Assembly (NCBI GenBank): GCA_017616975.1
Contig: JAFZXC010000035.1
Span: 1-49,528 of the forward strand
Reading direction: 5' to 3'
Origin: Alphaproteobacteria bacterium
Lineage (GTDB): Bacteria; Pseudomonadota; Alphaproteobacteria; Rs-D84
Length of the DNA stretch: 49,528 bases
A program made the position numbers and the translations under genes. The notes beneath the pieces are model-generated. The model had not been told where the DNA came from, did not search any database, and saw nothing but the letters and a program-made list of their open reading frames with translations. This document shows positions 303 to 10,847 of the stretch, in pieces (positions within the stretch are counted from its first letter, which is position 1; every line of letters begins with the position of its first letter).

Positions 303-333
303 TAAATTACCACAATAGTGGATATTATTTTCA

Positions 334-361
334 GGGGTCGTGTTAACGGCCCCTTTTTTTA
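334..361 (+). terminator. Rho-independent terminator after the K/A-rich gene
   Basis: ggggtcg-tgttaa-cggcccc stem-loop (one G-U pair) followed by a run of 8 T. Confidence 0.8.
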
Positions 362-369
362 TTGCACAG

Positions 370-399
370 TATCAGTCGTATAGCAATGTACGACTGATA
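370..399. promoter_or_regulatory. Perfect 11-bp inverted repeat (tatcagtcgta-N8-tacgactgata) upstream of the capsid gene
   Basis: Read directly. It lies in the 230-bp non-coding gap between the upstream terminator and the capsid gene. Confidence 0.5.
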
Positions 400-493
400 T
401 TATGCTGGATAATCTCTGTGACAAGGGACCCATACAATTTTTGTTTCGTGGCGCAAGTCATTGCATAACCATGTTGCAAAATTTTATTTGGCG

Positions 494-519
494 GTGTGAC
501 ATCTGTCACACTTTTTTAT
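494..519 (+). promoter_or_regulatory. Palindrome gtgtgaca-tc-tgtcacac followed by a T-run, about 20 nt before the capsid RBS (operator or attenuator hairpin)
   Basis: 8-bp arms with a 2-nt spacer, then ttttttatt. The GGAGA RBS is at 532-536. Confidence 0.45.
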
Positions 520-541
520 TACAAAATAAATGGAGAATTGT

Positions 542-1357
542 ATGTCTATTTCCGTAGATCAGGTCTTCGTAAAACAATTCGAAGCCGATGTTCATTTGGC
601 TTATCAGCAAATGGGCACAAAACTGCGTGCGTCTGTGCGCAGCAAATCGGGCGTTGTTGGTAAATCAACCACGTTCCAAAAAGTAGGCAAGGGTGTTGCC
701 AGCACAAAATCACGTCATGGTATCGTTCCAGTCATGAATTTGAACCACGAACCAGTGGAATGCATACTGAACGATTACTATGCGGGTGATTGGGTTGATG
801 CATTGGATGAATTAAAAACAAATGTCGACGAACGTCGTGTTGTTGCCGCTGCTGGTGCGTATGCATTGGGTCGCAAAACCGATGAATTAATCGTAAATGC
901 GATGAACAATACAACAACCAATGCCGGAAATTATTCAAATGCTTTTTCAAAAACAATGATATTGGAAGCAATTGAAAAACTGAACGAAAACGAAGTCCCA
1001 GATGATGGCCGTCGTTTTGCCGTTGTCGGTGTTAAACAGTGGAACACATTGTTGACTTTGGACGAATTTGTTTCTGCAGATTACGTTGGTGATACACCAT
1101 TAACAACCGGATTCGAATCAAAGAAATGGTTGGGAATCACATGGTTGTTGTATAACGGTCTGCCGTTGTCCAGTACGAACCGTGATTGCTTTATTTACCA
1201 CGCATCCAGTATTGGTCATGCATGTGGTCAAGAAGTCAAAACGGATATTTCATGGCATGGTGAACGTGCCGCACACTTTATCAGCAACAGCATGTCCCAG
1301 GGGGCTGTGTTGATTGATAACGACGGTATCGTTCGTATCAAATGCAAAGAAGCATAA
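542..1357 (+). CDS. Phage major capsid protein, T7 gp10-like (HK97 fold)
   Basis: FVKQFEADVHLAYQQMG...GKSTTFQKVGKG...DALDELKTNVDERRVVAAAGAYALGRKTDELIVNAM follows the T7 gp10 pattern (FKGFQHETIARDL...GKSLQF...DLDETLAHYELRGEISKKIGYALAEKYDRLI). I chose the ATG at 542, which is 5 nt after GGAGA, over the ATG at 530. Confidence 0.8.
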   Translation: MSISVDQVFVKQFEADVHLAYQQMGTKLRASVRSKSGVVGKSTTFQKVGKGVASTKSRHGIVPVMNLNHEPVECILNDYYAGDWVDALDELKTNVDERRVVAAAGAYALGRKTDELIVNAMNNTTTNAGNYSNAFSKTMILEAIEKLNENEVPDDGRRFAVVGVKQWNTLLTLDEFVSADYVGDTPLTTGFESKKWLGITWLLYNGLPLSSTNRDCFIYHASSIGHACGQEVKTDISWHGERAAHFISNSMSQGAVLIDNDGIVRIKCKEA

Positions 1358-1385
1358 TCAACAACATAACCAATGGGAGAAAATA

Positions 1386-8227: not shown

Positions 8228-9077
8228 GAGTGATATAGTATATGAAAAAATTGGTTTTTCAACGCCTTTTTTGCGTGGGTTCAAAAGCCTGAAAATCCCG
8301 ATTGTTGATGCGGATGGAAACTCGTCATGGCCGGAATTGTTCCCGTTGGACGCAATTGACAACCTGCGCAGCACGGTGGGCGTGCGATATTTTGCTTCCC
8401 AGATGATGTTAAAACCGATGCCACCAGAACGAATCAGGTTGGACCCGGGGGCAATGCATTTCTATGATGACGATTTTAATGCCAACAATGCCAAAATTGG
8501 TGATGCGTTAATAACAGGTGTCGCAATATATTGGGACCCCAGTATGGGTAAGCAAAACGCAGACGGCAGTGTTTGCGTCATTATATATCGTGATGATAAA
8601 TCCCATCGTGTATTTATTCATGATGTAATGTATATAACAGTTCCAGATAACGATGAACACCCAATGGCTCATCAATGCGACAGAGTGCTGAAATTTATGT
8701 CGCATTACAGTGTGCGAAAAATTTGCATTGAAACAAATGGCATTGGAAATACTTTGCCAGAAATTTTACGAGACTGTGCATCACAACATGGATTTGACAT
8801 CGTGGTGCAACGTGTTGTGAATAACAAAAACAAAAGCGACAGAATAATCGACACAATTGAACCGTTACTTTCGACAGGGCGACTTTATTGTGCATCACGG
8901 GTGCGTTCAACACCACTGCTTGCAGAGATGATGGGGTGGTCGCCATCTGGGTACACAACTCATGACGACGGAATTGATGCGGTTGCCGGTGCAATTTGTG
9001 CGTTGCCAAATCCTGTACACCCGATGGGACGGCCAGCCCAGATTTATTCTGCAAATACAAAATTCAAAATACCTTAA
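8226..9077 (+). CDS. terL: Terminase large subunit, C-terminal nuclease fragment (T7 gp19-like)
   Basis: YFASQMMLKP, IYWDPSMGKQNADGSV, ICIETNG and THDDGIDAVAGAI align with gp19 FTLQFMLNP, IDPSGRGKDETGY, ESNFG and AHDDRLDALALGI. Start set at the ATG at 8226; the tracked start at 8151 is antisense to dnaB. Confidence 0.85.
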   Translation: MSDIVYEKIGFSTPFLRGFKSLKIPIVDADGNSSWPELFPLDAIDNLRSTVGVRYFASQMMLKPMPPERIRLDPGAMHFYDDDFNANNAKIGDALITGVAIYWDPSMGKQNADGSVCVIIYRDDKSHRVFIHDVMYITVPDNDEHPMAHQCDRVLKFMSHYSVRKICIETNGIGNTLPEILRDCASQHGFDIVVQRVVNNKNKSDRIIDTIEPLLSTGRLYCASRVRSTPLLAEMMGWSPSGYTTHDDGIDAVAGAICALPNPVHPMGRPAQIYSANTKFKIP

Positions 9078-9098
9078 AACCAAAACAAAGGATGAAAA

Positions 9099-10331
9099 AT
9101 GTCAACAAACATTAAACAATTACAACAAATGTATAAACGTGCATTAGATTTACGAAATCCGTGGATAAAACGTTGGGACGATGCTCGTCGATATACAATG
9201 CCAACAAACGATGACGATATTGCAACTTTATTTGATTCAACGGCGGCGGATGCAGCAGATAATTTAGCGGCATCAATGTATTCTTTGATTACGCCCCCAG
9301 AATCGTTGTGGATGACATTGGTGCCAGAAAGTGCCGATTCTCCCAATGCAGAAATTGCAACGGCGATGTTTCGTGCAAACCTTAACGATTCTAATTTTTA
9401 TACGACCGTTCATCAATGTTATATGGATTTGGTCGTATTGGGTTCGGCATGCTTGTTTATGGCAGAAAATCCAATAGGGGCATCGTCTGCATTTTCGTTT
9501 TCTGCAATTCCAATGACCGATATTGCGATTTTGCCAAATGCGGTTTTTCATACAACGTCGAAACACGCAAGCGATATTATGGCTTGTTTTCCAAAATGGA
9601 CTCCGCCCGCCGATTTGCGTTCTAAAATTGAACAAGACCCAGAAATGCCACTAAAATTAGTGCAAAGTTTAGTGGGCCAAGATTTTGTTGCATGGTTGGA
9701 TGTGGGTGGTGATATTGAAAACAACATTGTGTCCACGGGGACTTTTGAAACGAACCCATATATTATTTTTCGTTGGTCCATAGCCAGTGGCGAATTATAT
9801 GGTCGGGGACCGGTTATGCGAGCATTGCCAGATATTAAAACGGCAAACAAAGTTGTGGAATTAGTGTTGAAAAACGCAACGATTGCAGTGTCTGGAATAT
9901 GGCAGGCCGATGATGATGGTGTAATCAACCTTGGGAACATTAATTTGACACCTGGGGCAATTATTCCAAAAGCAGTTGGCTCGTCGGGTTTAACGCCATT
10001 GACATCGGGTGCAAATTTTGATGTGTCGCAATTGGTGTTAAAAGATTTGCGTGAACGTATTCGCCATGCAATGTTAGCAGACAGGTTGGGGCTGTTGTCG
10101 GAACGTGAAATGACCGCAACCGAGATAATGGCTCGTAATGCAGATATGATGCGGATATTGGGAGCGACATATGGACGTCTGTTGCATGAGTTTATAAGAC
10201 CATTGGTCGATCGTGGATTGCAAATCTTGTCACGTCGTGGCGTTATCGACCGCATTGTATTGAACAGCGATGCCGAATTGAAATATATTGCGCCAATTAC
10301 ACAAATGGCCATAGCAGAAAATATAATTTAA
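9099..10331 (+). CDS. Portal (head-to-tail connector) protein, T7 gp8-like
   Basis: YGRGPVMRALPDIKTANKVVELVLKNATIAVSG and EREMTATEIMARNADMMRILGATYGRLLHEFIRPLV parallel gp8 YGRSYIEEYLGDLRSLENLQEAIVKMSMISS and ERVTAEEIRYVASELEDTLGGVYSILSQELQLPLV. Confidence 0.8.
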   Translation: MSTNIKQLQQMYKRALDLRNPWIKRWDDARRYTMPTNDDDIATLFDSTAADAADNLAASMYSLITPPESLWMTLVPESADSPNAEIATAMFRANLNDSNFYTTVHQCYMDLVVLGSACLFMAENPIGASSAFSFSAIPMTDIAILPNAVFHTTSKHASDIMACFPKWTPPADLRSKIEQDPEMPLKLVQSLVGQDFVAWLDVGGDIENNIVSTGTFETNPYIIFRWSIASGELYGRGPVMRALPDIKTANKVVELVLKNATIAVSGIWQADDDGVINLGNINLTPGAIIPKAVGSSGLTPLTSGANFDVSQLVLKDLRERIRHAMLADRLGLLSEREMTATEIMARNADMMRILGATYGRLLHEFIRPLVDRGLQILSRRGVIDRIVLNSDAELKYIAPITQMAIAENII

Positions 10332-10345
10332 TCCAAGGATACAAC

Positions 10346-10540
10346 ATGACCGATTTAGAAAAAGATTTTGTGCGCACTTTTGCAACACCATCGGGACAAC
10401 GGGTTTTGGAACATTTGCGCAAAATAACAATTGAACGAACGTTGGGGGCAAATGCAACCGATGCAGAGTTGCGCTGGGGCGAGGCCCAACGTGCGCTTGT
10501 TCATAAAATAGAAAATATGTCATCAGTGGGGGACAAATAA
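10346..10540 (+). CDS. Small phage protein (64 aa), possibly Bbp19-like
   Basis: AAGGA RBS. The pattern F..TF..P.G..VLEHL....ER......D...L.WGEAQRALV is reminiscent of small proteins next to the portal in BPP-1-like podoviruses. This is from memory only. Confidence 0.4.
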   Translation: MTDLEKDFVRTFATPSGQRVLEHLRKITIERTLGANATDAELRWGEAQRALVHKIENMSSVGDK

Positions 10541-10554
10541 TTTGTCAAAGTAAA

Positions 10555-10815
10555 ATGTCAAACAAACAAAACTCTTTATCAAATGTGATTGATACATTGC
10601 GAGACGGATGGTTTTTAATCGCATTTATTGCAGGTATGGTTTATTGGGTCGCACGTCAAGATTTATCACTGGATGATTTGGCACGTGCCAACGAACGTAT
10701 AACCGCATTGGAAAATCGCACAACAATGCTGGAAACTGGAATCGGTCAATTGCAAATGAAAATAGACGGAATCAAAGAAGATGTCACTTTAATAAAAAGT
10801 GCCGTTATAAAATAA
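10555..10815 (+). CDS. Membrane-anchored coiled-coil protein (86 aa)
   Basis: One hydrophobic helix (WFLIAFIAGMVYWV) followed by heptad-like ITALENRTTMLETGIGQLQMKIDGIKEDV. Last gene before the terminator. Confidence 0.45.
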   Translation: MSNKQNSLSNVIDTLRDGWFLIAFIAGMVYWVARQDLSLDDLARANERITALENRTTMLETGIGQLQMKIDGIKEDVTLIKSAVIK

Positions 10816-10819
10816 AAAG

Positions 10820-10847
10820 CCCCGCATTAATGCGGGGGTGTTTTTTA
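10820..10847. terminator. Bidirectional terminator (ccccgca-ttaa-tgcgggg) between the phage-like cluster and ppiD
   Basis: Stem-loop flanked by an A-run and a T-run. Confidence 0.8.

Follow-up and report, generated by a model that had tools for sequence, protein, structure and literature searches.

A split-terminase, T7-like virion module built around essential genes of gut Alphaproteobacteria: a candidate gene transfer agent of Candidatus Enterousia

Why should a bacterium with a genome of less than 1 Mb keep about 1.5% of it in phage structural genes that are under selection of housekeeping strength? The question, which needs explaining, is raised by a 49,528-bp contig (JAFZXC010000035.1 of assembly GCA_017616975.1; analysed whole and referred to here as the window) from an alphaproteobacterium of the order Rs-D84. 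At its left end the contig carries T7-like genes for a capsid, a tail adaptor and nozzle, a large terminase (TerL) in two pieces and a portal. A first-pass annotation of the window had proposed a domesticated short-tailed particle system resembling a gene transfer agent (GTA). The comparisons reported here strongly support the view that a set of T7-like virion, packaging and lysis genes has been domesticated, and we consider it rather probable that the cluster makes GTA-like particles, the transfer of DNA being the weakest link in that proposal.

The cluster was compared across 83 loci, made up of 80 retrieved loci and three metagenome contigs, from species-representative genomes and metagenomes; individual loci are labelled L001, L004 and so on, and hth93, xre334, unk219 and sm86 are labels of cluster genes. 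Genomes with a capsid relative were sought by scanning one genome per GTDB species. Families were assigned with Pfam, PHROG and NCBI equivalog models, and with hhalign for small open reading frames (ORFs).

Conservation and content of the phage-derived block

The cluster belongs to a block of about 14 kb, of which the window holds the right-hand three quarters, the left end of the contig falling inside a gene of AKKPAAKK repeats. From hth93 on the left to sm86 on the right, gene order and orientation are identical in 83/83 loci, including the split TerL gene and a dnaB operon that lies antisense between its halves. Outside the block the neighbours change: trmA occupies different places, and ppiD is the next gene in just three of the 83 loci. 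The intact reading frames noted for the window extend to essentially all loci, apparent stops in the adaptor and capsid genes lying upstream of the true starts; one metagenome-assembled genome (MAG) has a stop codon in xre334.

Ratios of nonsynonymous to synonymous substitution (dN/dS; Nei–Gojobori, closest pairs, values at dS of roughly 0.4–3) are 0.03–0.06 for the capsid gene, 0.04–0.07 for the portal, 0.06–0.08 and 0.13–0.16 for the N- and C-terminal pieces of TerL (TerL-N and TerL-C), 0.06–0.13 for the adaptor, 0.11–0.13 for the nozzle and 0.03–0.05 for the 86-aa ORF sm86. The corresponding values are 0.05–0.08 for dnaB and 0.05–0.07 for xre334, and all 12 cluster genes tested fall within 0.03–0.19 across about 80 species. 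The first-pass annotation had suggested checks of synteny and selection, and both favour domestication: gene order is the same in every locus, and the dN/dS values of 0.03–0.16 stand beside those of dnaB. Among 63 species, mean pairwise identity is higher for the capsid (0.87) than for DnaB (0.84), and capsid and dnaB distances covary (Mantel r = 0.75, reached in 0/999 permutations). Within the block, synonymous-codon entropy is at its lowest in the capsid gene, which is consistent with high expression.

These values bear directly on the reading that the block is a decaying prophage remnant, without a function of its own, kept only by linkage to the essential genes dnaB and birA. Essential host genes do lie inside the block, many phage modules are gone and the fibre gene has been lost in a third of lineages, as might be expected of such a remnant. 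Linkage, however, guards DNA against deletion and not codons against change; the low dN/dS and intact frames of 12 cluster genes across so many species, a capsid more conserved than DnaB, and invariant catalytic motifs in the terminase all speak against it. We consider this reading very improbable and largely refuted already.

An active mobile element, either a small temperate podophage or a capsid-forming satellite spreading among Enterousia, would account for the dozens of 10–13 kb 'UViGs' in IMG/VR that correspond to the Enterousia cluster (L088–L139) and for a 5-kb GenBank record named 'Bacteriophage sp.', with a capsid 64% identical. Against such an element, integrase, polymerase and primase genes were found neither in the window, as first read, nor in the Pfam-annotated flanks of L001–L003; excisionase, replication genes and att-like repeats are absent, and no tRNA gene borders the cluster in the window. 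Housekeeping dnaB and birA occupy fixed positions inside the block, the phage-derived genes co-diverge with dnaB, and carrier contigs reach 1 Mb, which is chromosome scale. We regard an active element as exceedingly improbable. The selection and co-divergence results therefore lead us to reject the linkage remnant, the active phage and the satellite alike. Set beside the definition of a GTA, the block is immobile (a fixed locus in 83 loci, with dnaB and birA inside and no integrase, excision or replication genes) and is vertically inherited under purifying selection across the host clade; an ordinary prophage would be marked by an integrase with att sites, variable presence, and relaxed selection or frameshifts, and these are not seen.

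A search of proteins clustered at 90% identity gives 4,176 capsid matches (E ≤ 1e-5), of which the best 120 are 76–92% identical and lie on contigs of up to about 1 Mb. A capsid relative is carried by 252 species-representative genomes. The carriers are Candidatus Enterousia or uncultured Alphaproteobacteria from the gut of ruminants, chicken, rabbit, mouse and human, and Enterousia is an uncultured clade widespread in the animal and human gut. It belongs to the order Rs-D84, a group of gut Alphaproteobacteria whose genomes are smaller than about 1 Mb and whose metabolism is reduced (PMC12306168, PMC13196213). Separately, we note that GenBank MT838907.1 and the IMG/VR entries L088–L139 are the chromosomal block, dnaB included, misfiled as viral; virus catalogues (IMG/VR, GenBank 'Bacteriophage sp.') in this way count a chromosomal block as viral genomes.

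Turning to gene content, the profile matches agree with the identities first given to the capsid, adaptor, nozzle, two-piece terminase, portal and small ORFs. The GC content of the cluster resembles that of its flanks, in agreement with the composition judged by eye. All of the following lie on the plus strand unless stated otherwise. The 3' part of the AKKPAAKK-repeat gene (1–302), which is truncated at the contig edge and encodes a small K/A/P-rich protein between scaffold and capsid, is followed by an intrinsic terminator (GC-rich hairpin plus T-run, 333–354) whose structure is conserved at this position in the alignment, and by a structured leader (364–544) recognised by covariation and folding z-score. 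The major capsid protein (542–1357; PF19821, 1e-70; phrog_3437) has an HK97 fold of T7/BPP-1-like type and a median identity of 82% across loci; a start at 530 was rejected as the wrong start codon, the true start being 542. Next comes a conserved 76-aa protein (1386–1616; phrog_18004), a homologue of which also lies 3' of the capsid gene in L084, a relative with an unsplit terminase (hhalign probability 99.4%). A 12-bp palindromic hairpin (1626–1653) separates this pair from the adaptor gene; the terminator scan scores it as terminator-like on the minus strand only, and the palindrome suggests that it may serve as an attenuator on the plus strand.

The gp11-like adaptor (tail tubular protein A; 1670–2188; phrog_394, 1e-31) starts at the Met of MFTKIDL and precedes the gp12-like nozzle (tail tubular protein B; 2211–3926; phrog_376, 7e-84). 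Downstream lies a lysine-rich helical protein of 116 aa (3946–4296), a positional and sequence homologue of the small post-nozzle protein of unsplit relatives (hhalign probability 79.7%, E=1.5e-5, against a 122-aa ORF of L084). Beyond the terminase genes, the portal (9099–10331; PF12236, 4e-81) belongs to the T7 gp8 family, has a median identity of 80% across loci and is about 60 C-terminal residues shorter than in unsplit relatives. It is followed by a small Bbp19-like protein (10346–10540; PF25181, 42 bits against a cutoff of 25), whose gene also adjoins the portal in L001, L084 and L086, and by the 86-aa product of sm86 (10555–10815), which from its N-terminal transmembrane helix and coiled coil is a spanin- or holin-like candidate. 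A bidirectional terminator (10820–10837), found by the terminator scan, forms the right border of the block, and synteny stops here. No prohead protease, tape measure or tail tube gene is present; the Pfam and PHROG matches are all of T7/BPP-1 type.

The part of the block beyond the contig end was read from L004, a close relative (capsid 97% identical), and from about 65 further loci with enough upstream sequence, in which these genes stand at fixed offsets. In L004 they comprise hth93, encoding a 93-aa helix-turn-helix (HTH) protein; a gene for a 139-aa protein whose C-terminus appears OmpR-like by eye and which has no family match; birA (TIGR00121, 152 bits against a cutoff of 83); and genes for a SleB-like hydrolase of 138 aa (weak PF07486 match; phrog_938 endolysin), a small membrane protein, a T7-type scaffold of 218 aa whose PF05396 score exceeds the cutoff, and the K/A-rich protein, full length at 102 aa (L004:9479–9787). 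The reported lack of scaffold, endolysin and holin is therefore an artefact of the contig ending inside the cluster, and what had been called a minimal head-plus-nozzle set includes scaffold and lysis genes as well. With the scaffold seen in L004 and L001 just left of the window's contig end, the T7-like gp8–gp12 virion set is represented throughout (PF12236 portal, PF05396 scaffold, HK97-fold capsid, adaptor and nozzle). A full prophage to the left, which would have told against domestication, was not encountered: only lysis, scaffold and regulator genes and birA are present there.

The K/A-rich gene, initially assigned to the host flank, is a conserved member of the cluster. In 67 of 69 loci the scaffold and capsid genes are separated by an ORF rich in K, A and P (median 77% K+A+P, about 100–130 aa). 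The product is histone-H1-like, and our guesses at its role are DNA condensation or service as an internal head protein. The AKKPAAKK repeats probably caused the assembly break at the start of the contig.

A split terminase, the antisense dnaB operon and unsplit relatives

The ORFs of the cluster, described at first as co-oriented and uninterrupted, are interrupted by three minus-strand genes (4921–8227) that hold the TerL halves 3.3 kb apart. These are unk219 (4921–5580), the last gene of the antisense operon, encoding an all-helical protein of 219 aa; xre334 (5605–6609), encoding a 334-aa regulator (median identity across loci 79%) in which the domain search finds two XRE-type HTH domains and an uncharacterised C-terminal domain; and dnaB (6677–8227). 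The last encodes the alphaproteobacterial housekeeping replicative helicase: its product scores 605 bits with equivalog NF006606 (cutoff 540) and stays below the cutoff of the phage_DnaB model. There is no intergenic space at either junction: the stop codons of TerL-N and unk219 overlap in TTAA (4921–4924), and the start codons of dnaB and TerL-C overlap in CATG (8225–8228).

TerL-N (4319–4924, plus strand; 201 aa; phrog_38 profile positions 272–460) holds Walker A, Walker B and motif III and breaks off about 10 residues past GTPHT, inside the RecA-like ATPase core. TerL-C (8226–9077, plus strand; 283 aa; phrog_38 positions 476–712) supplies the remainder of the ATPase and the T7-type RNaseH-like nuclease (PF22530). 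Aligned end to end, the two pieces match contiguous TerLs of 463–524 aa at 40–45% identity. Walker A, Walker B and motif III are invariant in 75–76 of 76 sequences and the three acidic nuclease motifs of TerL-C in 68/68, and the split arrangement occurs in all 72 examined loci that reach TerL-C. Because the dnaB operon lies antisense inside the terminase gene, TerL would be made as two polypeptides, and these presumably reassemble into one ATPase-nuclease, that is, a two-subunit terminase. Such an apparent natural two-subunit enzyme would be useful for dissecting how ATPase and nuclease are coupled.

Several explanations of the junction were tried and rejected. An intein, an intron, a split intein or trans-splicing is excluded by the pieces themselves, which end and begin within about 10 residues of the junction and carry no extra domain, and Rfam gave no match in 1–14000, so no group I or group II intron RNA lies between the halves. 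Repeats flanking the dnaB insert are at chance level only and do not mark att sites or a target-site duplication. A peptide echo at the junction (TDTIY / SDIVY) is missing in the split lineage L141 and was discarded as evidence of mechanism. As for the insert's last gene, unk219 has 1275 homologues, the best 120 of which are MAG proteins of similar length, the few named ones coming from Alphaproteobacteria bacterium MAGs; it has no family match, and an AF2 model (pLDDT 79) gave no PDB match at E<1.

The age of the fission can be gauged from more distant lineages. In L141 (capsid 73% identical, GC 0.51) TerL is split at the same point around a different insert of dnaB plus a gene for an 834-aa protein, and L140 (capsid 75% identical) has an antisense unk219 homologue after TerL-N. 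TerL is contiguous in lineages at about 65% capsid identity (range 59–65%). The fission is therefore old, predating the genus-level radiation, with the halves kept as separate genes since. In the surroundings of the L141 locus (L141:4173–10749), a tRNA-Arg gene precedes TerL-N, and a pilin-like gene, not the portal, follows TerL-C.

The overlap with dnaB has left its mark on the codons of TerL-C. Normalised synonymous entropy falls to 0.08 over its first 15 or so codons, against a gene mean of 0.71, and a minus-strand TTGAAA-N16-TACTAT is near-invariant there in 71 loci. We assign this element, which a promoter scan also picks out, as the dnaB promoter (8229–8273, minus strand; -35 TTGAAA at 8262–8257, -10 TACTAT at 8240–8235), embedded in TerL-C codons. 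As just 7 nt separate the end of the -10 element from the ATG, the dnaB mRNA probably has no leader. The locus thus offers an example of an essential host operon nested antisense in a phage-derived gene, with its promoter written into the codons of the other gene.

The unsplit relatives are podovirus-like clusters of about 10–11 kb in other bacteria of about 40% GC (L084–L087), flanked by an S24 (CI/LexA-like) repressor, with further examples in L143–L146, L153 and L159. They contain portal, Bbp19, scaffold, capsid, adaptor, nozzle, two small ORFs, a contiguous TerL, a SleB-like hydrolase and a holin-like gene, and they sit in host DNA; the one in L086 has tRNA-His and the S10 operon as neighbours. 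No integrase appears among the Pfam-annotated genes of L084–L087. These clusters may themselves be further domesticated elements. Enterousia proteins are 59–65% identical to theirs for the capsid, 40–46% for the portal, 35–55% for TerL and 26–46% for scaffold, adaptor, nozzle, Bbp19 and SleB-like hydrolase, while hth93 is 37–45% identical to the HTH domain of their S24 repressor. The regulator xre334 was also considered as the homologue of that repressor; its similarity is not significant, and the actual homologue of the HTH domain is hth93.

The unsplit clusters have the T7-like order portal–scaffold–capsid, a full S24 repressor and, upstream of the contiguous TerL, a phrog_31793 ORF that by its position is a candidate small terminase (TerS). 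In contrast, the Enterousia block has its portal–Bbp19 and lysis blocks swapped, has lost the S24 domain, the phrog_31793 ORF and about 60 C-terminal portal residues, and retains of the fibre only an anchor protein; TerL is split, dnaB and birA are embedded, and the K/A-rich gene and structured leader are added. Two relatives look more phage-like, L149 on a contig of 35 kb and L162 on one of 18 kb: ORFs of 748–1361 aa and a fibre-sized ORF follow the nozzle gene there, and these correspond to the core/ejection module missing from Enterousia. Many further relatives are found in IMG/VR, with host GC of 31–69%, and the nearest named phages are Pelagibacter podophages (capsid 42% identical).

The capsid leader and the role of the particles

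The leader upstream of the capsid gene contains three conserved hairpins, H1 (371–398), H2 (406–432) and H3 (449–471), followed by H4 (493–511) with a T-run (512–517), which is terminator-like, variable in sequence and placed about 25 nt before the ribosome binding site, after which the ATG follows. The RNAalifold consensus of 81 sequences has 97.8% of its cells paired, with changes on both sides in 18 of 23 pairs; none of 500 shuffles reaches these values, and slid controls are 20–41% paired. The single-sequence fold has a minimum free energy z-score of -6.1. A covariance model finds exactly one leader copy per Enterousia locus (e.g. L004:9839–10015), and no additional copies indicative of a regulon in the window or in 28 loci. 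It was not found in 16 of 17 more distant loci searched, nor in any unsplit relative; a weak match in L140 is the only one. The leader matches no Rfam family and is an undescribed structured RNA. A sigma-54 promoter (TGGCGC...TTGCAT) was considered within it and rejected, as the spacing varies from 4 to 10 or more nt and the halves covary as a stem. The anatomy of this terminator-containing structured leader, together with its covariation, suggests read-through control (antitermination or attenuation) of the structural genes.

We propose the following history and mode of action. A temperate T7-like podophage would have left the block as a fixed part of the chromosome in an ancestor of Candidatus Enterousia, and inheritance since then has been vertical. 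The phage would have lost its integrase, replication genes, RNA polymerase, candidate small terminase and large internal core/ejection proteins. Kept are two regulators, an HTH-only remnant of a CI/S24 repressor and a second DNA-binding-like protein; a lysis and virion set of SleB-like hydrolase, small membrane protein, scaffold, K/A-rich basic protein, capsid, adaptor and nozzle; and large terminase, portal and Bbp19, with a fibre stub in about two thirds of species. Host genes are embedded in the block, birA between the regulators and the lysis genes and the dnaB operon antisense inside the terminase gene. In a subpopulation of cells, transcription may get past the leader terminator upstream of the capsid gene; with the help of the scaffold, proheads would form on the portal. 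The two-piece TerL, which lacks a recognisable TerS, would fill them with host DNA irrespective of sequence; lysis would fall to the hydrolase and membrane proteins, and stubby particles would deliver the DNA to related cells. We infer particle formation, reassembly of TerL, packaging of host DNA, lysis, transfer and leader read-through control from the genes themselves. The intact portal and catalytically conserved terminase argue for DNA packaging, the selected adaptor and nozzle argue for DNA exit through the tail, and the lysis genes inside the cluster argue for release.

Several observations weigh against this proposal. The T7 terminase depends on the small terminase gp18, and no homologue of the phrog_31793 candidate of unsplit relatives was found here; nor do we know of a characterised precedent for an active split TerL. 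T7-type terminases are normally sequence-specific (PMC7947584). Internal core or ejection proteins of the gp14–gp16 class, correctly reported as absent, do not follow the nozzle gene, where the 116-aa ORF alone is present. The fibre gene is cleanly absent from the window, leaving a 22-nt gap (4296–4319). The tail fibre first listed as unseen is indeed missing from the window, but 48 of 75 relatives encode a T7 tail-fibre N-terminal anchor protein of 181 aa, consisting of the domain and a short tail (e.g. L007:13767–14312; PF03906, 3.6e-4; phrog_1640, 6e-16), with the frame intact in 48/48 loci and a dN/dS of 0.15; the others lack it cleanly. At most this anchor protein, and in no case a full-length fibre, was found among the 75 relatives. 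A search for competence genes, confined to the window, found none. Finally, the first 70 dnaB codons contain no island of synonymous-site conservation that would mark a plus-strand promoter for TerL-C and the portal; one possibility is that these two genes are transcribed by read-through from TerL-N, antisense across the dnaB operon.

Such read-through invites a more elaborate regulatory reading, in which a T7-derived GTA common to the Enterousia lineage has its production wired to replication arrest through the leader switch and the dnaB antisense arrangement. When the leader opens by antitermination, RNA polymerase would run through the capsid gene, TerL-N, the antisense dnaB operon, TerL-C and the portal, and the transcription that supplies TerL-C and portal would collide with and silence dnaB. 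Conversely, in growing cells, dnaB transcription, starting in TerL-C and ending in TerL-N, would hold the terminase silent. On this view the division of TerL into two pieces would have been selected as a regulatory architecture and would be no accident. As a whole, we consider this scheme doubtful.

The main rival to the GTA proposal is that the domesticated particles serve a role other than transfer: in defence against related T7-like phages, with decoy capsids or terminase hijacking or aborting an infection; in programmed lysis that sets DNA or nutrients free; or in delivering something to a partner cell on which the reduced-genome hosts depend. Structural genes and dnaB are under equally strong selection, but nothing in the sequence specifies DNA transfer; the fibre and ejection proteins are missing in the window. 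The hosts, moreover, are suspected symbionts without standard transporters for sugars, amino acids and peptides (PMC12306168, PMC13196213), which may suit a role of this kind. On the other side, the intact portal and a terminase with conserved ATPase and nuclease residues point to DNA packaging, the selected adaptor and nozzle point to DNA release through the tail, and no hallmark of a defence system was seen, the PADLOC library not having been searched. We consider a non-transfer role unlikely, though it deserves to be taken seriously, and favour the GTA proposal.

Neighbouring genes and known systems

Elsewhere in the window, the T4-type lysozyme that had been noted some 9 kb from the cluster is real (19728–20285; PF00959, 1e-30). 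It adjoins a tRNA-Leu gene (20355–20439); nothing was found to tie it to the cluster, which carries a hydrolase of its own. Closer to the block, a gene for a 674-aa protein with a TOD1/MUCI70 glycosyltransferase-like domain (14310–16334) occupies the lowest-GC part of the window (0.35) and may have been acquired horizontally. Four ORFs at 16417–18558 and 18838–19641 (258, 225, 231 and 267 aa) have no Pfam match; similar-sized unannotated genes lie near the cluster in L001 (233, 215 and 261 aa) and L004 (260 and 215 aa), and the two L004 proteins have signal-peptide-like N-termini and are, by eye, candidate outer-membrane beta-barrels. Further right, an A-rich, low-GC stretch (33395–36137) carries five tandem plus-strand ORFs of 171, 173, 171, 240 and 138 aa. 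Four of these were searched without a Pfam match, the ORF at 34449–34964 lying outside the search, and the ORFs at 33923 and 34449 are paralogues (26% identical).

Among characterised particles, those of RcGTA type (Rhodogtaviriformidae) also occur as reduced, head-only clusters in Rickettsiales and Holosporaceae endosymbionts (PMC9254644), and dN/dS values of 0.06–0.08 are given for Rhodobacterales GTA genes (cited in PMC9254644). Like RcGTA, the Enterousia block is a phage-derived cluster of head, tail and packaging genes without integrase or replication genes, vertically inherited under purifying selection and kept in reduced genomes. The protein families, however, are unrelated (PF05396, PF19821, PF12236 and the adaptor and nozzle are podoviral), and the Enterousia cluster contains the lysis genes, a split TerL and embedded essential host genes. 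The BaGTA portal gene, at 1863 nt, is much longer than the 1233 nt found here.

A nearer counterpart is FpGTA of Faecalibacterium prausnitzii, reported to be a podovirus-like GTA that packages about 8.5–9 kb of random DNA (PMC12946183). This precedent in a gut bacterium means that the concept is not new, and it weakens the earlier view that a T7-like GTA would be. Both systems have an operon of about 10 kb with TerL, portal, scaffold, capsid and short-tail-type proteins, as compared by their descriptions. FpGTA differs in residing in Bacillota, in having a TerS-like gene and a second operon (baseplate, fibre and lysis), and in lacking a split TerL and embedded host genes; it is experimentally supported, whereas the Enterousia system is a candidate known from its genes.

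For the split terminase, partial parallels come from other interrupted phage enzymes. The NrdA gene of Aeromonas phage Aeh1 is reportedly split by a homing-endonuclease gene, and T4 topoisomerase gp39/gp60 is likewise in pieces; there, as here, the two separately translated parts remain under selection and presumably reassemble. The insert in TerL differs from that of Aeh1 in being a 3.3-kb antisense host operon with dnaB and not a selfish endonuclease gene. The leader, for its part, resembles systems in which phage late genes are controlled by read-through of a terminator, as with lambda Q and the HK022 put RNA, and CcGTA is also said to be under anti-termination control. A terminator-containing leader again lies directly upstream of a structural operon, with two similar stem-loops, H2 and H3, ahead of the terminator hairpin. 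The leader matched nothing by sequence or in Rfam, and no Q-like or GafZ-like protein was identified.

In the literature searched, no paper was found that links Enterousia or Rs-D84 with phage-like particles or GTAs. The Enterousia element thus appears to be undescribed; it is a distinct variant, conserved to great depth and marked by its split terminase, the essential genes embedded in it and its structured leader. It would add a podovirus lineage of T7 type to the domesticated particles of Alphaproteobacteria, which have so far been mostly siphovirus-like, as in RcGTA.

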